47,377 nt of DNA, from the IMG/VR virus record IMGVR_UViG_3300029893_000002. The stretch is one strand, 5' to 3'. The notes beneath the pieces are model-generated. The model made no database searches. It was not told the origin of the DNA and saw only the letters and a list, made by a program, of their open reading frames with translations. Shown here piece by piece: positions 33,934 through 43,431 of the stretch. This stretch comes from a virus. The number at the start of each line of letters is the position of its first letter. Within the stretch, counting starts at the first letter, position 1. Made by a program: the position numbers and the translations under genes.

Positions 33934-34069
33934 ACGAGCCCCTTGCCGCTTCTCGGGCGCACATGAGACACTCTCAGTGCTCTCGGCTGCGCGAGGGGTT
34001 GACGGAAAACCCCTGGTGTTGCGCTCCTCTGCATACTCTCGACGGTACAACGACGCTCCGGGCCGCGTG

Positions 34070-34615
34070 ATGGCGTACCGGGGGACGCCGTACACCGTCC
34101 AGAAGATGATCGAGCAGGCGCTCGGCCCGCGTGGCGAGCGGTCGATCCGTGTCCGCCGTCACGCCGAACAGATCGTGAACAACATCCGGCCGAAGGACTA
34201 CTCGAGCGAGCTCTGCGCGGTCTACCACTGGTGGTGCCGCGCGGGCCGCTACACGCGCGATCCGCTCCACGTCGAGTACCTCAAGGACCCCGAGCGCCTC
34301 GTCTCCGATGCCGAAGAGGGCCGGCTCGTGTGCGACTGCGACGAGCTCGCGCTCGGCATCGCGACCGACTGCATGATCCTCGGCAGCCCCGCGCAGTTCG
34401 TGACCGTCGGCTTTCGGCCGCGGGTTCCGGGTGGGCCCGAGATCTACACGCACGTCTTCGCGCGCGCCCAGGACCCTCGCACCGGCGTCTGGTGGGTACT
34501 CGACCCGGTCGCCGGTCGGCGGGTCGATCGTATGCTCGGCCGGGTGCGCCAGTTCAAGATCTACCCGGTCGATGCCGACACCTGGCAGGCCCTCCGAAGG
34601 AGGCACGGAGCGTGA
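34070..34615 (+). CDS. Transglutaminase-fold (Cys-His-Asp) protease-like protein
   Basis: YTRDP...E...P, CDCDE, THVF, WWVLDP. Confidence 0.82.
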   Translation: MAYRGTPYTVQKMIEQALGPRGERSIRVRRHAEQIVNNIRPKDYSSELCAVYHWWCRAGRYTRDPLHVEYLKDPERLVSDAEEGRLVCDCDELALGIATDCMILGSPAQFVTVGFRPRVPGGPEIYTHVFARAQDPRTGVWWVLDPVAGRRVDRMLGRVRQFKIYPVDADTWQALRRRHGA

Positions 34616-35325
34616 GGGCGCCCGGCTACATGGGAGCGGCGCCGGGGCCCGAGGATCCGATCCTCGCCGGCGCGGGGCGCGCGGCGTCGATCATCGCCAC
34701 GCGCGCACGCGAGCTGCCGCCAGGCGAGCGCCCACGCGCGGTCCGCGAGCTCCTCGCCATGTTCGGCCCGCGCGTGCCGGCCAAGGTCTCGAGGGCGGCC
34801 GCGAAGCTTGAGGCGGAGGGCTGGCCCGCGCCCGCGGCGCTCGAGCGGGCGATGCAGCTCACGATCGCCGATCGCCTCGTGAGCCGCTTCGTGGAGATCG
34901 GCGAACGGAGCCGCATCCGGCCCGGGCGCGGCGCCGAGGCCGTTCGCAAGCTCACGGCCGAGCTCTCGGGGCTTGGCGACGTCGGAAGCTGGCTCAAGGG
35001 GGCCGCCGAGGACGTCTGGAATGACGCCGTGAAGCCGGTCATGTGCCATCCGGTGACCCCGCTCGCCGCGGGCGCGGTCGCGAGCATCTCCTCCCCCGTG
35101 GCGGGCGCTGCGGCGGGCGTGGGCGCCGAGGTGGCCCAGGCCGTGGTCTGCCCGCCCGGAACGAAGCCCGCGCCCGCGGCGAGCCCCCCTGCGCCCCCGC
35201 CTCCGAAGGAGCCGAAGACGCCGAAGTGGCTGGGCCCGGCGATCATCGGGGGCGCCGCGCTCGTCACGCTCGGAATCGTGGCGCTCGGCGCCAAAAAGAA
35301 GAAGAAGGGGACCCCCGCATCATGA
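34612..35325 (+). CDS. C-terminally anchored membrane protein (paralog 1)
   Basis: GTGA coupling; internal SGLGD; TM followed by KKKKK. Confidence 0.75.
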   Translation: MRAPGYMGAAPGPEDPILAGAGRAASIIATRARELPPGERPRAVRELLAMFGPRVPAKVSRAAAKLEAEGWPAPAALERAMQLTIADRLVSRFVEIGERSRIRPGRGAEAVRKLTAELSGLGDVGSWLKGAAEDVWNDAVKPVMCHPVTPLAAGAVASISSPVAGAAAGVGAEVAQAVVCPPGTKPAPAASPPAPPPPKEPKTPKWLGPAIIGGAALVTLGIVALGAKKKKKGTPAS

Positions 35326-35894
35326 TGGACCCGATCCTCACCGCCGCCCGAAAGGAAGCGCGCCGTCTCATCCGGACGCTCAACCGAGAGCAGCTCTTTC
35401 GCCAGCTGCGCCGCGAGGGCCTCGAGCGCAAGGTGCGCGAGCTCCTCGGCCGCTACGAGGCCGAGGGGATCCCGTCCTCTGCCGCGCTCGACCAGGCCGT
35501 CACGGTGGCGCTCGCCGACGCCATCTTCAACGGCTTCGAGCGGCTCGGCGAGAGGGTGATGCGTCGTCAGGGCACGATGGCGGGGCTCGGCGCGACGGTG
35601 ACGGCCACCATCGGCGGCGCGGTCGGCCGCGGGCTCAAGGCGGCCGCATGCAGCGATCACACACGCGAGCTCCTGCGGCGGCTGAGCACGACCGATCGGG
35701 AGCGGTACGCGTCCGAGATGGGACTCGACATCGTCGCGGGGGTGGTGCAATGCCCCTCGTCAGCGCCCGATCCGGGCTACGTCGAGCCGCCCCCGGCACC
35801 CGAGCCGGAAAAGAGCAACATGCCGCTCATCATCGGCGGCGTGGCGGTCGTCGCCGTGCTCGGGGCGGCCGTTTTCATCGCGACGCGCAAGTAG
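35322..35894 (+). CDS. C-terminally anchored membrane protein (paralog 2)
   Basis: ATGA coupling; internal AGLGA; TM followed by RK. Confidence 0.75.
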   Translation: MMDPILTAARKEARRLIRTLNREQLFRQLRREGLERKVRELLGRYEAEGIPSSAALDQAVTVALADAIFNGFERLGERVMRRQGTMAGLGATVTATIGGAVGRGLKAAACSDHTRELLRRLSTTDRERYASEMGLDIVAGVVQCPSSAPDPGYVEPPPAPEPEKSNMPLIIGGVAVVAVLGAAVFIATRK

Positions 35895-35912
35895 CAGGGG
35901 AAACAGGTCAAC

Positions 35913-37148
35913 ATGGCAGGCACGAACGGACTCGGAGACTGGGAGGACGCGATCCTCGACCCGGATGTGGCGTCGGAGATGGGGTCCTACGACATGGAGG
36001 CGGACGACGAGTTCGCGCTCGACGACGACAGCCTCGACCTCGACGACATCGAGGCCGAGGGCGGCGCCTCCGAGCCCTGGGGGCCGGGCGCGGGTTACGC
36101 GCACCTGCCGATGAGCATGGCGGTCACCGATCGCGCGCCGCTCGGGTCGAGCGACGAGGAGCACCAGGTGGCGGCGAACGCGGCCGTCGAGCAGCAGCAG
36201 CGTGCCGAGGGCGACCCGGGCGACATGGTGCGCTACGACCGCTCGAGCTACGAGCGCGGCCACACCTACGGTTCGGGCATCTTCGACATGCCCGACGAGG
36301 GCTACCGCAGCCGCGACGGCAACGGCATCTTCGACACCGACTTCGCGATGCCCGACTACATCGGCGACGAGCCGGAGGTCGGCGTCTGGGAGTCGGAGAT
36401 GCTCGACCTCAACACCGGACAGCCGCGCGTCGTGCAGGGCAACACCTCGGGCGTGCAGCTCGCGCGCCAGGTGCCGCAGGGGCAGGCCGTCTTTTCGCCC
36501 TTCGCGCCGCCACCCTACGGCCAGTCGACCCCGGTTCGGACCGTGCCGGGCGTCCCCCAGCCGCGCGGCGCGTGGCTCGGCCGCATCGAGCAGTTCGGAA
36601 ACGCCGCGGCGGCCGCCCTTCTCGCCGAGGCTCACCGCGGCCGCTCCGGAAAGCACGCCGAGCGGTTCGTCCAGGCCGCGCTCGAGGCGCTCGGGCCCGG
36701 CAAGTCGCGCATCGCGATGGCGCAGGTCCGACGGCTTCGCAAGCTCGGCTACCCGCCGGGACAAGCCCTGCACCAGACGGTCGCCCACCTCATCATGCAC
36801 GCGACGGCCGACGATCTCCGGACCAAGGCGACGCAGCGGGACGCAAGCCCGCGGATGCCGTCGCTCGACCGGATGGCGGCCGCGACCGGGCTCGGCGCTT
36901 CGCCCCAACTGAACGATGCGGCTCGGCAGACGATCGGGCCGCTCACGCAGCTCGGGCCCGAGACGCAGAGCGAGCTCGAGAGCTTCTTCGCATCGCCCGC
37001 CGGGCGCGAGGCATCGCAGATGCTCGGAGAGGCGCAGGGCGCCCCCGGCAATGGGGTCGGCAAGTACCTGCTCCTCGGCGCGGCCGTTCTCGGCGCCGGC
37101 TACGTCGGCTGGCGGTGGTGGCAGGACAAGCAGCAGGGCGGAGCGTAG
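35913..37148 (+). CDS. C-terminally anchored membrane protein (acidic N-terminal half, paralog 3 domain)
   Basis: N-terminal NGLGD; G[SN]GIFD twice; TGLGA; C-terminal TM. Confidence 0.8.
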   Translation: MAGTNGLGDWEDAILDPDVASEMGSYDMEADDEFALDDDSLDLDDIEAEGGASEPWGPGAGYAHLPMSMAVTDRAPLGSSDEEHQVAANAAVEQQQRAEGDPGDMVRYDRSSYERGHTYGSGIFDMPDEGYRSRDGNGIFDTDFAMPDYIGDEPEVGVWESEMLDLNTGQPRVVQGNTSGVQLARQVPQGQAVFSPFAPPPYGQSTPVRTVPGVPQPRGAWLGRIEQFGNAAAAALLAEAHRGRSGKHAERFVQAALEALGPGKSRIAMAQVRRLRKLGYPPGQALHQTVAHLIMHATADDLRTKATQRDASPRMPSLDRMAAATGLGASPQLNDAARQTIGPLTQLGPETQSELESFFASPAGREASQMLGEAQGAPGNGVGKYLLLGAAVLGAGYVGWRWWQDKQQGGA

Positions 37149-37175
37149 TCGCCGGCAGACGGCGAGGAGGACCCA

Positions 37176-37430
37176 ATGGACGTGGTGAGCGCAGACGACA
37201 GCCAGGCCTACTCCGCCTACGCGAACCGCATGGCGGGGGCGCCGGTCGGCGCGCAGCAGCCGGCCTACCCGATGTACGGCGTGCCGACGCTCGGGCAGGC
37301 GGCGGGCCAGGCGGCGGGGATGCTTCGCAACCCGTTCGTCACGTTCCTGCTCGGCGCGGCGGTCGTCGGAAGCGTCTGGCTCTACGTCGACGTGATCAAG
37401 CCGATGCGCGAGCAGCGAAAGGGGCGGTGA
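37176..37430 (+). CDS. Small C-terminally anchored membrane protein
   Basis: GAGGAGG RBS; TM followed by a basic tail. Confidence 0.75.
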   Translation: MDVVSADDSQAYSAYANRMAGAPVGAQQPAYPMYGVPTLGQAAGQAAGMLRNPFVTFLLGAAVVGSVWLYVDVIKPMREQRKGR

Positions 37431-38155
37431 TGAGCCGGTACCACACCATCTACAACCCGTACGTCTTCGCCAACTACGGCCAGCCGCAGCGCCGCCGCGA
37501 GTACGTCTCGCCCGTCGTCTTCCAGACCGGGGCGCCCATGCTGCACTCGGAGCTCGACCAGGACTACTCGTCGCTCGCGCCGGGCGTCGGCCTCATCGGC
37601 AACTACGAGCGCGTCGGGGTGGGATCGGGCGACGGGCTCGAGGGGCTCGGCGCGATCCCGGACGTCACGCTCCCGCGCGACACGGTGGTGCGAGCCTCCG
37701 GTGTGCCGCACAACATCTCGTCGCAGAACGCGTCGTCGGCCGCGAGCCTGGTCAAGCGCCGGCTCGAGAACAAGGGCTGGTACTACGTGAACAAGGTCGG
37801 CTGGGTCGCGGGCGGCAAGATCGACATCCAGCTGCGCCTGAGGGATCCGCGTCACGTGCGCGACGTCCTCGAGAACGTCCGCAACGCGGGCAAGGGCGTC
37901 GAGGGAAGCAAGCGGGCCTACTTCGAGGTGCCGAAGATCGAGTGGTCCTACCCGAAGGGCTACGCGCCGCCCGCGGACGAGGCGACCGAGGATCTGTTCT
38001 CGGAGATGCCCACCGAGGCATCGGACGGCGGCGAGCCCTTCTGGGCGAAGCGGGTCGCGGGCCTTCCGGTGTGGGCCATCGGCCTCGGCAGCGTGGCGCT
38101 CGTCGGGACGGTGGTCGTCGTGGCACTCAAGAAGAAGGGTGGGAGGGCGGCGTGA
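37430..38155 (+). CDS. C-terminally anchored membrane protein
   Basis: TGATG coupling; GLEGLGA; GLPVWAIG...KKK. Confidence 0.78.
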   Translation: MSRYHTIYNPYVFANYGQPQRRREYVSPVVFQTGAPMLHSELDQDYSSLAPGVGLIGNYERVGVGSGDGLEGLGAIPDVTLPRDTVVRASGVPHNISSQNASSAASLVKRRLENKGWYYVNKVGWVAGGKIDIQLRLRDPRHVRDVLENVRNAGKGVEGSKRAYFEVPKIEWSYPKGYAPPADEATEDLFSEMPTEASDGGEPFWAKRVAGLPVWAIGLGSVALVGTVVVVALKKKGGRAA

Positions 38156-39897
38156 GCTACCGCGGCAGAGGCCTCGGCGTGGCACTCAAGCCCGCGAGCA
38201 CGACCGTCATGGCGCGGGGGGCGGTGGCGACGAAGGCGAGCGCGCGCTCGAGCGGCGGCCTTGCGCCCGGCAGCGGTGGTCCCGGGCTCGCGCCAGGGAC
38301 GACGGGCCCGTCGGTGACCGAGTCGGCGGCCGCCTGGACGGGCCGGACCGGACCAACCCTCACCGAGTCGACGCGGCGCGAGGCGACGACGCCCGCCCGG
38401 GCGCCGACCGCGCCTCCGGTCCGGAGCGGCGCCGAGGCCGTCTTCGAGGAGGCCGCCCGGCGCGGCCCATCGGCGCCGGTCATCTACGTCCCGGACGCAT
38501 GCGTCGATGCGCGCCTCGAGCACGCCCCGAGCTACTCGGCGCCTCCGCGTGAGCTGCCGCCCGGGTCGATGGTGGTGTGGGGGGTGCAGCTCCCCGAGGG
38601 GCTGAGCAAGTCGAAGGGCGACGCGATCGCGCGGTTCATCCGGCGCCGACTCAACCCGAAGCTCAAGGAGGTGACGACGCGCACCAACCCCACGGGCATC
38701 GGCAGCTGCAACGAGGACATGCGCAACCGGCCCGTCGAGGCCGCGGTCTCGCACAAGGAGTGCTACCGCGGCCTCCGCGAGGTCCAGAGGGAGACGCCGG
38801 CGCCGCACAAGTGGTTGCGCCGGTCGATCCTCACGCTCTACCGCGCGCGTGGCACGACTGTCGAGTACGTCCCGGACATGCGGCTGCTCGTCGTTCGCGT
38901 GATGATCAAGCACGGCTGGGAGCCGGTGAATCCGGAGAAGCTCAGCGCGGAGTCGGGGGGGATGTCGGGCCGCGAGGTGCCGTTCAGCCTGGGCGCGGGC
39001 GTCGCGCAGGCACCAGGCAGCACGGTCGAAAAGGGTCACCCGCCGCTGGCGAGCTACATCCCGGGCAGCATCAGCGCGGCGCTTCGGGCCGAGGGAATCC
39101 CGGCTTCGGCCGTGACCATCCCGGTGCCGGTGTACGTCCCGGCCGAAGAGCGCGAGGGCCGCGATGTCACGACGCTCACCCGGATCATGGCGCTTCACGC
39201 GACCGACCTCTGGCGCGACTTCGCGGTCGTCATGGGCCGCTGGTTCACGCGCGCGGTCGAGATGCTGCCGCAGATCGCGATCGCCAAGGGTGGCGTGCAG
39301 GGCCGTGAGAAGATCGCCGCGGCGGTCGAGGTCCTCTCGCGCTACGACTCCATCGCCTCTTCGGTCGTCTCGCGTGCCGAGTCGGCCGCCTCGAGCATGT
39401 CGCCCCAGGAGGCGTCGGCGGTGATCGCGTCGCTTCGCTCGGAGCTCAACGAGGCCGAGCGCAAGGTCTCCCGCGGGATGGGCGTCCGGATGGCCGCCTC
39501 CTTCGAGCACGACGCCCAGAACCTCAAGCCGAAGTACGAGCGCTTCGTGCGCACGTACGTGCGGCACCTTCGCACGACCGATCCCGTGCGTCGCCAGTTC
39601 GCCGAGTGCCACGCCATCAAGCTCGCCAACGAGGACATGGCGCGGATGCACGGCGTCTACATGGGCCTCGCGCGCGAGATGGCCGCGCTCGAGGCCGAGC
39701 GGGATCGGCTGGCGAGCAACATCCCTGCGATGCAGGACGCGTTCGCGAGGGCGCGCGCGCGCCTCGACGAGATCGAGGCCTCGCTCGACCTCGGCTGGTA
39801 CGAAAAGAAGGTGGGCGGCCTTCCGGTCTGGGCTTGGGGCCTTCTCGGCGCGGCCGGGGTCGGCGGCGGGATCTGGTACCTCCGGAGGAAGAAGTGA
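38152..39897 (+). CDS. Large C-terminally anchored protein with coiled-coil stalk
   Basis: Starts SYRGRGLG; ends GLPVWAWGLLGAAGVGGGIWYLRRKK. Confidence 0.8.
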   Translation: MSYRGRGLGVALKPASTTVMARGAVATKASARSSGGLAPGSGGPGLAPGTTGPSVTESAAAWTGRTGPTLTESTRREATTPARAPTAPPVRSGAEAVFEEAARRGPSAPVIYVPDACVDARLEHAPSYSAPPRELPPGSMVVWGVQLPEGLSKSKGDAIARFIRRRLNPKLKEVTTRTNPTGIGSCNEDMRNRPVEAAVSHKECYRGLREVQRETPAPHKWLRRSILTLYRARGTTVEYVPDMRLLVVRVMIKHGWEPVNPEKLSAESGGMSGREVPFSLGAGVAQAPGSTVEKGHPPLASYIPGSISAALRAEGIPASAVTIPVPVYVPAEEREGRDVTTLTRIMALHATDLWRDFAVVMGRWFTRAVEMLPQIAIAKGGVQGREKIAAAVEVLSRYDSIASSVVSRAESAASSMSPQEASAVIASLRSELNEAERKVSRGMGVRMAASFEHDAQNLKPKYERFVRTYVRHLRTTDPVRRQFAECHAIKLANEDMARMHGVYMGLAREMAALEAERDRLASNIPAMQDAFARARARLDEIEASLDLGWYEKKVGGLPVWAWGLLGAAGVGGGIWYLRRKK

Positions 39898-40283
39898 GCT
39901 ACGCCCTCGGCCGGACCTATCTCACCGCCGAACAGGTGCGCGCCGGGACAGCCTCGCGTGCCGAGGCCGATCGCGCATTCGATCTGGCGCGGCTCTGGTG
40001 TCCGGAGAAGGTCGGCGAGATGAAGAAGCCGACCACGGTGCGACGGCTTCTCATCCAGAGCCCGAGCCAGTGCAGCCCCGACAAGGCGCCCTGCGTCCGC
40101 TACGAGCCGGTGGCGCTCAATGCCGAGCGCTGGCTCGCCGAGCACTACAACTGCTACCCGCCCGAGGCCGCCCCGGACGAGTCCTGGTGGACGAGCGAGA
40201 TGGCGGGCGTTCCGATGTGGGGCTGGGTCGCCGGCGCCGTCGTGCTCGTCGGCGGGGCGGCGGTCTGGGCGATGACGAGGTGA
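39894..40283 (+). CDS. C-terminally anchored Cys-containing protein
   Basis: Starts SYALG; ends GVPMWGWV...TR. Confidence 0.75.
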   Translation: MSYALGRTYLTAEQVRAGTASRAEADRAFDLARLWCPEKVGEMKKPTTVRRLLIQSPSQCSPDKAPCVRYEPVALNAERWLAEHYNCYPPEAAPDESWWTSEMAGVPMWGWVAGAVVLVGGAAVWAMTR

Positions 40284-40286
40284 GCC

Positions 40287-40781
40287 ATGTACGCGGTTCT
40301 TGGAGCAACGGCGATCGAGTCCCCCCCGAATCCGTTTCGGGGCGGCATCACGTGGCGAGGCGGAGCTCGGCGCGGCGCCGTCACGTGGGCGCCCCGCCTG
40401 GGTGACGCGGACGACGATGCGGCGCGCGAGCGAGCGCGCCAGCTGTACGACAAGGCGACGCGCGCGTTCAACGCGGGCCAGTACGAGACGGCCGCCAGGT
40501 ACTACAACCAGGCCTACAACACGCGCAACCACCCCGACGTGCTCATCGCGCTCGGCGAGGCCGAGATGCGCGCCGGCAACCTCACGTCGGCCGAGGTGGC
40601 GTTCGAGATGTACCTGCGCGACGCGCCCGACGGCGCCCGGCGTGAGCAGGCGCGAAAGCGCCTTGCCGAGATCCGCAAGCGCCTCGGTCCGGTTGGGCCG
40701 GGGCCGGCGGCCTACGTGCTGCTCGGTCTCGGAGCCCTGGGGCTCGGGTACGTGGGGTACAATGCGCTGAGGTCTCGATGA
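40287..40781 (+). CDS. TPR-repeat protein with C-terminal TM
   Basis: LYDKATRAFNAGQYETAARYYNQAY...ALGEAEMRAGNLTSAEVAFEMYL. Confidence 0.78.
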   Translation: MYAVLGATAIESPPNPFRGGITWRGGARRGAVTWAPRLGDADDDAARERARQLYDKATRAFNAGQYETAARYYNQAYNTRNHPDVLIALGEAEMRAGNLTSAEVAFEMYLRDAPDGARREQARKRLAEIRKRLGPVGPGPAAYVLLGLGALGLGYVGYNALRSR

Positions 40782-41449
40782 GCCAGCAGGACTACGATCC
40801 CTACCAGATCGACTACGGGTACGACCCGTCGATGGGCAACTACTACCCGGTGGACCTGGCGCCGGTCGATCCGCACGCTATGGGCGAGAGCGCGGCCGAT
40901 CCCTCGCAGGTGCCGGGCACCGCCCCGGCCCAGGTGGTGCCCCATCCCCAGGCACCCCAGGGCCCGGTCGCGCCGGGCTGGCTCAAGGTGCGCAAGCTCG
41001 GCATCCCGTACTGGGCGTGGATCTTGGGGCTCGGGGCCGCCGGCTACTACCTCTACCATCGCCACCAGAAGAAGAAGCTCGAGGCGAACGACGACGAGAC
41101 GCCGAGGCTCGGTTCGGGCGACGACTGGGCGCCGAGCCGGAGCCGGTTCGCATCGAACCTCGAGCGCTACCTCTCGGAGAAGAAGGCGCGGGCCAAGGTC
41201 TTTCACGACGCCGACGACGCGAAGAAGGCCGGGGTAAAGAACCCCTCGCCGCTCGTCAACGTCAAGGTCTCGCGCGCCTCGAAGCTCCACGAGGACAAGT
41301 CGTTCCGGGAGCTCGCCGCGAGCGAGGGGCTCGAGCCCGTGCGCCTCGACGAGACGACCGTTGGCCTCGTGCCGGCCAAGAACGGCGATCGCGGCCGCGA
41401 GTGGGAGAAGTACATCGACGCCCTGCGTGACGAGGGCCAGGAGGTCTGA
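40778..41449 (+). CDS. Membrane protein with central GIPYWAW anchor
   Basis: GIPYWAWILGLGAAGYYLYHRHQKKK. Confidence 0.78.
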   Translation: MSQQDYDPYQIDYGYDPSMGNYYPVDLAPVDPHAMGESAADPSQVPGTAPAQVVPHPQAPQGPVAPGWLKVRKLGIPYWAWILGLGAAGYYLYHRHQKKKLEANDDETPRLGSGDDWAPSRSRFASNLERYLSEKKARAKVFHDADDAKKAGVKNPSPLVNVKVSRASKLHEDKSFRELAASEGLEPVRLDETTVGLVPAKNGDRGREWEKYIDALRDEGQEV

Positions 41450-41452
41450 CCG

Positions 41453-41677
41453 ATGAGCTATCGACTGGGAACGACGCAGGAGGCCGCGAACACGAACGGC
41501 AACGCCACCGCGAGCGCCGACGGTCAGAAGCCGCCCACCGAGCCGTCGCCCGAGGACAAGCCTGGCCTCGTCGAGCGGGCCAAGGAGCAGCTCACCGAGC
41601 GCGGACCGCTCGGCGTCCCGTACTGGGGCTGGGGGCTCGGCGTGGGCGTCCTGCTCTGGGCGATGATGAGGAGGTAG
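41453..41677 (+). CDS. Small C-terminally anchored protein
   Basis: Starts MSYRLG; ends GVPYWGWG...RR. Confidence 0.75.
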   Translation: MSYRLGTTQEAANTNGNATASADGQKPPTEPSPEDKPGLVERAKEQLTERGPLGVPYWGWGLGVGVLLWAMMRR

Positions 41678-41679
41678 GG

Positions 41680-42153
41680 ATGGGCTACTCGATGGGCGCC
41701 GATCCGGCCGGATCGGATCTTCCGACGGTCAACATCACGGTCCGCGCGCTCCAGCGCGAGCTCGTGCGCGCCGGCTTCGACATCGGCCGCTCGGGCGTCG
41801 ATGGTCTCTGGGGTCCCGCGACCAAGGGTGCGCTCGACAGGGCGCTCGCCCGCACGGGGCTCACCGGTGGCGCCTGGCGCTACTCGGCGAGCCGGGACCG
41901 GGTCACTCTGACGGCGGCCGCCTGGTCGGCCATCGGCAGGCTGCCGGCGGGGGCCGGTGGCGAGCGGCAGTCGAGGACGCGCCGACCGTCGTCGCCCTCG
42001 TCGCCCCCCGCCACCGAGGACTTCACGGTGCCGGTGGCGAGCCAGCGGGCCGGGATGCTGGGCGGCGTGCCGCTCTGGGCGTGGGGGCTGCTCGGCGCCG
42101 CGGGCGTCGGGGTCTGGCTCTACACCCGCAAGCCCCGACGGGCGGCCGCCTAA
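41680..42153 (+). CDS. Peptidoglycan-binding domain protein with C-terminal anchor
   Basis: VRALQRELVRAGFD...VDGLWGPATKGAL (PG_binding_1 pattern); GVPLWAWG anchor. Confidence 0.8.
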   Translation: MGYSMGADPAGSDLPTVNITVRALQRELVRAGFDIGRSGVDGLWGPATKGALDRALARTGLTGGAWRYSASRDRVTLTAAAWSAIGRLPAGAGGERQSRTRRPSSPSSPPATEDFTVPVASQRAGMLGGVPLWAWGLLGAAGVGVWLYTRKPRRAAA

Positions 42154-42171
42154 GACGGCCGAGGAGGATCG

Positions 42172-43005
42172 ATGGCGTACCAGCGGATCTTGCAGCCCGG
42201 GCCGCCCGGCTCGGGGGGATCGAGCTCGCCCGCGCCAGTGAGCTCGACGGCGTGGGCGGCGGCGAACGCGGCGGCGAACGCCATCGGCCTCATGATGGAG
42301 GATCGGTTCCTCGACGACGTCGAGTACGACCACGGGAGGTACGTCGCCGCGATGCGTCGGGCTGCGAGCACCGCGCAGCAGCTACGACAGCGCGTGGGAG
42401 AGGCGATCGGCTCGTCCCGGCTCCAGATGCCCGCTGCCGACGCGCAGCAGATCGTGCTCGGATCGCTGATGCAGGCCAAGAAGATGGTCGCCGCCCTGCG
42501 CGTGCTCGCCTACTCCGACAGTTCGCAGGCGCGCGCGCTCGAGCGGCGCGCGGCGCAAGTCCTCCCGCAGCACCTGCAGGCGACCAACCGATTCCTCCAG
42601 CAGGCGAAGCGCGCCGCCTCGTCCTCCTCCGGCACCTCCGGCATCGGCTTTCTGATGGCGGCGGCGCTCGTCGCGCTCGGGGTCTATCTGATCGTCGATC
42701 TCGCCACGACGACCGAAACGGTGGGAGAGCTCAACGAGGCGCTCCGGACCTGCATCGAGGCCGGCTGCACCCCAGCCGAACGACAGGTGATCATCGACGA
42801 GTGGAAGCGCCGGAGGGAGGCACTCGACCAGCAGGAGAAGGAATCCGGGTGCGGTCCCTTCGAGTTTCTGTGCGGCGCGGCCGGCGACGTCATTCGCTGG
42901 GTGGCGCTCGGGGGCGCGGTGCTCGTCGGTGGCTACCTTCTGTGGGTGACCTGGCCTGCCCTTGCGGGCGGCGGACGGGCCATCCGGGCGAAGCTCAAGA
43001 GGTAG
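42172..43005 (+). CDS. Helical membrane protein with two hydrophobic segments
   Basis: SGIG precedes the first TM; C-terminal TM and basic tail. Confidence 0.75.
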   Translation: MAYQRILQPGPPGSGGSSSPAPVSSTAWAAANAAANAIGLMMEDRFLDDVEYDHGRYVAAMRRAASTAQQLRQRVGEAIGSSRLQMPAADAQQIVLGSLMQAKKMVAALRVLAYSDSSQARALERRAAQVLPQHLQATNRFLQQAKRAASSSSGTSGIGFLMAAALVALGVYLIVDLATTTETVGELNEALRTCIEAGCTPAERQVIIDEWKRRREALDQQEKESGCGPFEFLCGAAGDVIRWVALGGAVLVGGYLLWVTWPALAGGGRAIRAKLKR

Positions 43006-43008
43006 AAG

Positions 43009-43431
43009 ATGGCGCTCTACTCGGTGTGGGACTGGAACCGCAACGTCTACCGCGTCTACGCGGACAGGCGACCGGTCTCGGTCGGCGACGACCCGGATCC
43101 GCCCCGGCCTGGGCGCGTCCACATCCTCGGGGCGGTTCCCGACGAGCATGTCAAGCGCCTTCCGAAGGGGGCGCGGTTCGTCTCGTACTCACACGCGCCG
43201 AGGGGCGAGATCGTGCGCCATCCGGCGGTGAGCGGGAAGGCGATGGGGGGCCTCGGCGCGCTCGCCGATCGGCACTCGGGCATCGTCGAGGGGGCGCTCG
43301 TAGGCGCGGGCGTGGCGGTCCTGCTCGGCTACCCGCTCCAGATCAGGCGCGACTGGCGGGCCCAGTCGGTGTTCCGCGACGCGGCGCTCGGCGCCGGCAT
43401 CGGGGTTCTCTACGGCCTGATCATCGGATGA
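43009..43431 (+). CDS. Membrane protein
   Basis: MALYSVWDW...; MGGLGA; two C-terminal hydrophobic helices. Confidence 0.75.
   Translation: MALYSVWDWNRNVYRVYADRRPVSVGDDPDPPRPGRVHILGAVPDEHVKRLPKGARFVSYSHAPRGEIVRHPAVSGKAMGGLGALADRHSGIVEGALVGAGVAVLLGYPLQIRRDWRAQSVFRDAALGAGIGVLYGLIIG

Follow-up and report, generated by a model that had tools for sequence, protein, structure and literature searches.

A Pro-x-Trp-capped membrane anchor module on unrelated proteins of a large uncultured virus lineage and of some tectiviruses

C-terminal sorting signals of the LPXTG, PEP-CTERM, GlyGly-CTERM and MYXO-CTERM types occur on proteins with an N-terminal signal peptide, lie strictly at the C-terminus and are cut by a dedicated membrane enzyme. 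Tail anchors are, to our knowledge, defined by position and hydrophobicity, with no conserved sequence. Viral fusion proteins have Trp-rich pre-transmembrane segments, in which aromatic residues gather immediately ahead of the helix; these segments belong to enveloped animal viruses with exported ectodomains and have no sequence relation to the element studied here. This element is a membrane-anchor module of about 40 residues, found in six proteins of the IMG/VR virus record IMGVR_UViG_3300029893_000002, of which a stretch of 47,377 nucleotides was analyzed (the window). Elements of this sort are of known kinds (membrane anchors, tail anchors, and portable sorting tags), and the module is a sequence-conserved anchor family that has so far been undescribed. 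We consider it probable that it acts as an uncleaved, position-independent anchor fixing unrelated domains to the viral membrane.

The window has a guanine plus cytosine (G+C) content of approximately 71%, and its genes were called from codon-position G+C (GC3-based). Thirteen consecutive, tightly packed genes on the + strand, numbered g52–g64, occupy positions 34612–43431, and every product has at least one hydrophobic helix, in agreement with the initial annotation of the sequence, which had described about 13 consecutive membrane-anchored proteins. By one count, 11 of the 13 products have the helix close to the C-terminus (g52–g59, g61, and g62 being named as such); that of g60 is mid-protein, and g63 and g64 have two to three helices. 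The strict motif G[LVI]P[VLYM]W[AG] had six matches among the called proteins and likewise six in the six-frame translation of the whole window, against 0.013 matches expected from the residue composition of the 14,181-residue proteome. Each match is followed by a Gly-rich span of 15–20 uncharged residues and then by one to four K/R. Both the number of motif proteins and this helix-plus-basic layout had been proposed earlier and were borne out, whereas the coordinates then assigned to the motifs proved to be gene starts, the motifs themselves lying elsewhere in the genes (DNA starts at 38060, 39817, 40206, 41000, 41612, and 42064).

The earlier statement that none of the proteins has a clear N-terminal signal peptide also held: the best 10-residue Kyte-Doolittle mean within the first 40 residues did not exceed 1.74 in any of the 13 proteins, or 1.25 in the six motif proteins. 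The six had further been compared with tripartite tails. A tail anchor is indeed present in g56, g57, g58, g61, and g62, each of which has a single helix near the C-terminus (motif-to-end distance of 20–30 residues) and no signal peptide, but not in g60, in which motif and helix occupy residues 75–100 of 223, so that this copy is internal and not a C-terminal tail. The module-free g52–g55 and g59 are tail-anchored by the same definition. In an all-against-all comparison within the window, the motif proteins were alike in the anchor alone. The anchors of g57 and g62 share 15 of 17 residues, of which seven are specified by different codons. The sole full-length duplication of the cluster is the tandem paralog pair g52/g53, with 31% identity over 225 amino acids (expectation value, E, 2e-14).

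When the six window sites were aligned with the sites of related viruses (alignment A2), the motif was seen to be the core of the module. The module begins with an aromatic/basic juxtamembrane stretch, consisting of one aromatic and one or two basic residues approximately 6–9 positions upstream of the motif, and continues with G-(G/P)-hydrophobic-P-x-W-(A/G)-W, a Gly-rich helix in which one Gly is nearly invariant, a Tyr/Trp belt, and a basic cluster. In AlphaFold models of the g60 and g56 families, the membrane helix begins one residue past the Pro. The Pro and Trp are among the very few invariant columns of the g60 family (19 sequences, approximately 34% identity) and of the g56 family (14 sequences, approximately 25% identity), where they correspond to P213 and W215. 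At such identities, this invariance means that the motif is conserved more strictly than the greater part of the globular domains.

We also used a profile made of 14 anchors from other genomes and of no window sequences. The six window proteins scored 15.8–38.3 bits and the next protein 9.5 bits, the latter with its helix part only; g54 matched with the helix part alone at 7.9–9.5 bits. This gap sets the six off, as a discrete class, from the plainer anchors of their neighbors, a difference that had been noticed in the initial annotation. At the level of this profile, the seven plainer anchors do not appear to be diverged copies of the module. No Pfam, NCBIfam, or PHROG family matched through the module among the module proteins scanned, and a text search of the literature for the motif strings gave nothing relevant.

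The 13 genes of the cluster are the following.
g52, 34612–35325, + strand: protein whose plain C-terminal helix is followed by a K5 tail; g53 is its paralog; no full module match.
g53, 35322–35894, + strand: protein with a plain C-terminal helix; paralog of g52.
g54, 35913–37148, + strand: protein of 411 amino acids with a plain Gly-rich C-terminal helix; matches in loci L010, L013, and L024.
g55, 37176–37430, + strand: protein of 84 amino acids with a plain helix.
g56, 37427–38155, + strand: ferredoxin-like domain, linker, and C-terminal module (DNA 38030–38152); family kept across the lineage of related viruses.
g57, 38152–39897, + strand: coiled-coil protein of 581 amino acids with a C-terminal module (39787–39894); relatives P0053, P0069, and P0101.
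g58, 39894–40283, + strand: protein of 129 amino acids with a C-terminal module (40176–40280).
g59, 40287–40781, + strand: TPR protein (Pfam TPR_16, E 5e-8) with a plain C-terminal helix.
g60, 40778–41449, + strand: mid-protein module (40970–41107) with a conserved alpha/beta domain C-terminal to it; found in every relative examined.
g61, 41453–41677, + strand: protein of 74 amino acids with a C-terminal module (41582–41674).
g62, 41680–42153, + strand: probable peptidoglycan-binding domain, linker, and C-terminal module (42034–42150).
g63, 42172–43005, + strand: protein with two to three helices and no module.
g64, 43009–43431, + strand: protein with two C-terminal helices and no module; kept in all relatives.

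We searched 1.84 billion cluster representatives with a module profile and obtained 719 proteins at E ≤ 0.001, the similarity extending over approximately 40 positions with E from 1e-12 to 1e-6. The best 150 of these comprise 57 proteins with a C-terminal module, 37 with an internal one (mostly members of the g60 family), and 56 with an N-terminal one; after masking of the module the 150 proteins fell into 78 groups with no detectable mutual similarity. The idea of one anchor with interchangeable cargo, put forward in the initial annotation, is supported by this result, on a scale far beyond that of the window, and by the resemblance of the window proteins in the anchor alone. The profile returned no generic single-pass proteins and its matches cluster within viral genomes, as would be expected of the viral anchoring tag then proposed. 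The anchors of g57 and g62 are 45–72% identical over 18–33 residues to proteins of the N-terminal class. As a cellular control we used 200 genomes from the phylum of the Planctomycetota metagenome-assembled genome (MAG) mentioned below, with a threshold of E ≤ 1e-4 and 35 candidates scored per genome; three of the 200 genomes gave a match, at 25–27 bits, versus 40–67 bits for viral contigs. An exact DNA pattern for the octapeptide G-P-L-P-V-W-A-W was found in one IMG/VR contig and in 47 stretches of cellular genomes, most of the latter being chance matches or unrelated families and four being tectivirus-like.

When g56, g57, and P0002 were used as queries against IMG/VR, no close relatives were found. 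P0002 was the exception in direct searches with g56 and g57, which otherwise gave almost no matches; it is a distant relative of g56 in which the motif is kept and the rest has diverged. The conserved soluble neighbor g65 as query led to 17 loci, among them IMG/VR contigs of 62–298 kb and, from the bin of a Planctomycetota MAG, a contig of 106 kb. The gene order g51, g54–g56, g60, g64, g65, g70 is kept among these relatives. The four complete genomes (G001–G004; 153–171 kb) have two to five full-length module matches each, nearly all of them in the syntenic cluster, and G003 has two further copies at 95–97 kb. The module families of g56, g57, and g60 are conserved across the lineage, and for g58, g61, and g62 no relatives were detectable beyond the anchor.

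In the relatives (L009, L011, and L013–L016; P0002; alignment A5), almost every membrane protein of the cluster, with or without the module, has after its helix a tail of the form x-A-N-R-R-R-R. Such Arg tails, encoded upstream of the g65 homolog, often contain 15–40 Arg residues, and almost all members of the g56 family keep the Asn ahead of the Arg run. The tails of the window virus are short (1–9 K/R), even in the orthologous g56. One Planctomycetota MAG (G005) contains two contigs with syntenic pieces of a related virus, L024/C29 (g54–g56) and L016/C115 (g60–g70); the presence of two viral contigs in one such MAG is either a hint of the host or a binning artefact.

Actinobacterial tectiviruses provided the second setting of the module. 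In the N-terminal class the consensus is tight and leads into a linker rich in Ser and Thr; some members contain LysM or PASTA domains. Four genes of this class were found in MAG contigs by means of the pattern for the octapeptide, the commonest one, and three of them are among genes for small membrane proteins. The packaging ATPases of L048 and L071 are 30–33% identical to those of Rhodococcus phage Toil, the Streptomyces phages WheeHeim and Forthebois, and Microbacterium tectiviruses, and L046 and L048 encode SLT or SLT/M23 enzymes with a C-terminal helix. L046 is a tectivirus-like 12-kb contig in an Elusimicrobia MAG, with a G+C content of 71% that looks high for the bin; it has eight small membrane-protein genes in a run, two adjacent proteins with a Pro-x-Trp cap, and an SLT+M23 enzyme.

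Complete genomes of cultured tectiviruses were scored with a profile of 20 anchors from the large-virus lineage. The results showed that gp20 of Rhodococcus phage Toil (annotated as a LysM domain protein) matched at 37 bits, gp21 of Microbacterium phage Badulia (annotated as a membrane protein) at 26 bits, and gp24 of Streptomyces phage WheeHeim weakly at 15.8 bits, Gly replacing the first Trp. In all three phages the module gene follows a P32/P34-like ‘membrane DNA delivery’ gene and precedes the entry transglycosylase, a position that may be likened to the place of P11 and P16 in PRD1. The analogy is one of position: P11 and P16 had no similarity to the profile, and the best PRD1 scores were 8.8 and 6.8 bits, with the helix part only. 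Tectiviruses have the module on one protein only, and the tectivirus-like contig L046 on two. The window copies, being C-terminal or internal, differ from Toil gp20 and Badulia gp21 in architecture and synteny; thus the module is common to the window virus and tectiviruses, but the genes are not orthologs. In tblastn searches, cultured phages gave no match to g47, to the g57 anchor, or to either of two proteins of the N-terminal class. The particles of WheeHeim contain lipid according to matrix-assisted laser desorption/ionization time-of-flight analysis (PMC6950372). A link between the module and viral membranes is therefore supported indirectly, since the module heads a membrane protein of cultured, lipid-containing Tectiviridae. 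Taken together, the comparisons show that the module is real, conserved and discrete, that the window virus has it in common with Tectiviridae, and that it is joined to unrelated cargo.

The cargo domains of the window proteins were also examined. Pfam and NCBIfam scans of the cluster proteins gave nothing beyond the TPR match of g59 and a sub-threshold match of g62 to PG_binding_1 (Pfam; E 1.3e-3, below the cut-off). Residues 20–54 of g62, the same 35 residues that match PG_binding_1, match the solved effector chain 4nso_A with E 5e-4. The C-terminal alpha/beta domain of g60 (residues 118–223) was modeled with a predicted local distance difference test (pLDDT) score of approximately 95, and a fold search against the PDB returned no clear match (best Z 5.4). 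The fold search with the g56 domain found no informative relative, the domain being a generic ferredoxin-like sandwich (best Foldseek E 0.02). The start of g57 at 38152 is the same as that of the database protein P0045.

Two observations concern the ends of the genes. The Lys/Arg codons of the tails are AAG/AGG, versus CGC/CGG expected at the G+C content of the window (35300–35325, 38125–38155, 39880–39897, 41660–41680, and 42990–43009), and these codons form the Shine-Dalgarno sequence of the next gene (GGAGG, AGGAGG, or GAAGAAG). The start of the downstream gene overlaps the tail codons or comes within approximately 10 bases, and the basic tail and the signal for translational coupling are the same bases. 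Late-cluster genes often start with M-(S/A/G)-Y, commonly M-S-Y-R or M-A-Y-R (34070, 38152, 39894, 41453, 41680, 42172, 44163, and 45608), and nearly all members of the g56 family start with M-S-Y. These starts may be a shared N-terminal signal or a constraint on translation initiation.

If the module is an uncleaved anchor of a viral membrane, its Pro would cap the helix and its Trp residues would be placed at the membrane interface. The module occurs in membrane-containing bacterial viruses. In actinobacterial tectiviruses it is N-terminal on one conserved membrane protein, whereas in the lineage of 140–170 kb viruses it has multiplied, at the C-terminus or inside proteins, on cargo as unlike as a coiled coil, a peptidoglycan-binding domain, and two alpha/beta domains that differ from each other. 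Most likely, the N-domains would lie towards the cytoplasm and the capsid, and the basic tails across the membrane, towards the DNA. An N-in orientation seems to us the likelier one, because N-domains of up to approximately 540 residues have no signal peptide and because the LysM and PASTA domains of the N-terminal class come after the helix; such domains must be outside the cytoplasm. The vesicle of the PRD1 type pinches off the cytoplasmic membrane (review PMC6356626), and N-in proteins in such a vesicle would therefore have their cargo towards the capsid and their basic tails towards the DNA. Tails facing the DNA suit the long Arg-rich tails of the relatives.

The location of the module in the virion, its topology, and the role of its Pro and Trp are thus what we infer from these features. 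That Pro, Trp, and Gly are so strictly conserved hints at a specific contact, at curvature sensing, or at insertion to a defined depth, and these residues may mediate a specific contact or insertion step beyond bulk hydrophobicity. Seven of the 13 cluster proteins lack the module, and the tectiviruses that have it carry it on one protein, or on two in contig L046; the module is therefore no general ticket into the membrane and, if it is an address at all, it addresses a subset of the membrane proteins. We can go further only tentatively: the Pro-x-Trp-x-Trp module might be an address or assembly tag of viral internal membranes, read by a conserved partner or by the curved membrane itself, so that any domain fused to it, at whichever end, enters the particle. 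It would then constitute the first sequence-level link of Tectiviridae with a 140–170 kb lineage of tailless viruses, which would have multiplied the tag in order to load a variety of proteins onto its membrane, but we regard this extended proposal as doubtful.

Several findings speak against a viral membrane anchor of this kind. In the C-terminal and internal classes, K+R amount to 1.3 before the helix versus 4–5 after it, and by the positive-inside rule this bias predicts the opposite topology; in addition, translocation of the long poly-Arg tails of the relatives would be difficult. The study of WheeHeim (PMC6950372) and that of Microbacterium tectiviruses (PMC11768872) do not treat the products of the module genes as virion proteins, nor do they discuss the module. 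The genomes of PRD1 and Bam35 gave nothing above 9 bits, so the module is not general to Tectiviridae. No other tectiviral gene was detectable in the large lineage, where the PRD1_DD search of the relatives was empty; an independent origin or the horizontal transfer of a short segment is therefore possible. The search for the P3 capsid family likewise gave no match in the relatives, nor did it give one in any control genome. Finally, the octapeptide G-P-L-P-V-W-A-W opens membrane helices in unrelated chromosomal proteins, being C-terminal in a Burkholderia protein of approximately 280 amino acids (L035, L045, L054, L055, L057, L059, and L067) and N-terminal in an actinobacterial protein of Pseudolysinimonas/Schumannella (L028, L050, and L069), which indicates that such a helix cap can arise by itself, outside viruses.

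The last observation raises the question of whether the module is a generic helix cap, with Pro as N-cap and an interfacial Trp, that arose by convergence with neither common descent nor shared function. Since the similarity covers some 40 positions at the E values given above, and since the module is clustered in viral genomes and nearly absent from the 200 cellular genomes, we find this explanation hardly credible in spite of the shared octapeptide. A true processed sorting signal, for which the initial annotation had invoked LPXTG, PEP-CTERM, GlyGly-CTERM, and MYXO-CTERM as models, is also very improbable. According to this explanation, a dedicated enzyme cuts at the motif and releases or re-attaches the cargo, the enzyme perhaps being the Cys-His-Asp-like product of 34067–34615 or one of the host. 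The tripartite layout of motif, helix, and basic tail at the extreme C-terminus of five of the six proteins would agree with it, as would an enzyme-like gene at the head of the operon. The enzyme-like character of that product comes from the initial annotation alone, and no family was found for it by Pfam, NCBIfam, or PDB sequence searches. The absence of signal peptides does not fit such processing, and NCBIfam, scanned with the six motif proteins at E ≤ 1, returned no sorting-domain family. Nor is the module strictly C-terminal: g60 and the other proteins of its family of 19 carry it internally, and 56 of the best 150 matches as well as the tectiviral proteins carry it at the N-terminus; a cut at the motif in the N-terminal class would remove only about a dozen residues, so that cleavage is unlikely as the general function of the module. 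Sortase, exosortase, and rhomboid (PF04203, PF09721, and PF01694) were absent from five complete or near-complete relatives under conditions where control genomes did respond; an enzyme supplied by the host is still possible. An adenovirus-protease-like site before the motif was considered as well and rejected: throughout the family the residues before G-G/G-P fit no single register, and cleavage there would be pointless in the N-terminal class.

It is also conceivable, although in our opinion unlikely, that the anchor itself is the functional part and the cargo an accessory. The module would then be a membrane-remodeling or pore- or tube-forming element that oligomerizes via its Gly-rich helix, its Trp-rich pre-helix segment perturbing the bilayer, and that builds or drives the DNA-delivery tube, or a fusion step, at entry. 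Its helix residues are kept far beyond what hydrophobicity needs, as the 15 of 17 residues common to the g57 and g62 anchors illustrate, and the location of the tectiviral gene between the P32/P34-like gene and the entry transglycosylase, along with the peptidoglycan-binding cargo (LysM, PASTA, and the PG_binding_1-like domain of g62), would be in keeping with a role at entry. However, the correspondence with P11/P16 is an analogy between proteins that show no profile match, and cargo as diverse as 78 groups is better suited to an anchor than to a dedicated machine. Cargo that binds peptidoglycan would suit lysis too, and the proteins could act in the cytoplasmic membrane of the host, for example in lysis, superinfection exclusion, or cell-wall remodeling, with the module as an inherited anchor. 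The match of P0047 to an endolysin PHROG via its LysM part is compatible with this. We nevertheless judge it improbable, more so than the pore or tube, since the 13 co-oriented membrane genes stand in a lineage-conserved block beside g64, g65, and the Arg-rich membrane protein g70, since the tectiviral gene belongs to the block for structure and DNA delivery, away from the endolysin, and since the Arg-rich tails of the relatives fit contact with DNA better than they fit lysis. An uncleaved anchor on proteins of the viral membrane thus remains the explanation that we prefer.

On the selection of phage-encoded proteins for the membrane patch of the virus, the PRD1 model says no more than that they are ‘recruited’ (review PMC6356626). 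An anchor as short, as strongly conserved, and as portable as this one may bear on that selection, and its presence in cultivable tectiviruses (Toil and Badulia) makes it testable by ordinary phage genetics. The module also gives independent, sequence-based support for a membrane in a large uncultured virus lineage, and with 719 clusters and little cellular background it is a compact probe for membrane-containing viruses in metagenomes.

The module resembles the C-terminal sorting signals in its order of short motif, hydrophobic helix, and basic cluster, recurring on many unrelated proteins of one genome. It differs from them in having no signal peptide, a variable position, no match to their models, and, in the five relatives searched, no such enzyme, so that the analogy drawn in the initial annotation is not supported. 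It has in common with bacterial tail-anchored proteins a single helix within approximately 30 residues of the C-terminus and the lack of a signal peptide; unlike theirs, the anchor is conserved in sequence and appears to work N-terminally and internally as well. PRD1 P7/P14, whose annotations read transglycosylase and DNA delivery, and the entry transglycosylases of tectiviruses likewise have a soluble, cell-wall-acting N-domain, no signal peptide, and one C-terminal helix, a plan that g62 fits, but their helices have no Pro-x-Trp cap and do not match the profile. The closest counterparts are Toil gp20, Badulia gp21, and WheeHeim gp24, which consist of the same module parts and come from membrane-containing phages. 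Toil gp20 and WheeHeim gp24 carry LysM peptidoglycan-binding cargo, comparable with the PG_binding_1-like domain of g62. The tectiviral forms are N-terminal, occur once per genome, and continue into a Ser/Thr-rich linker and a C-terminal domain, whereas five of the window copies are C-terminal and one is internal.

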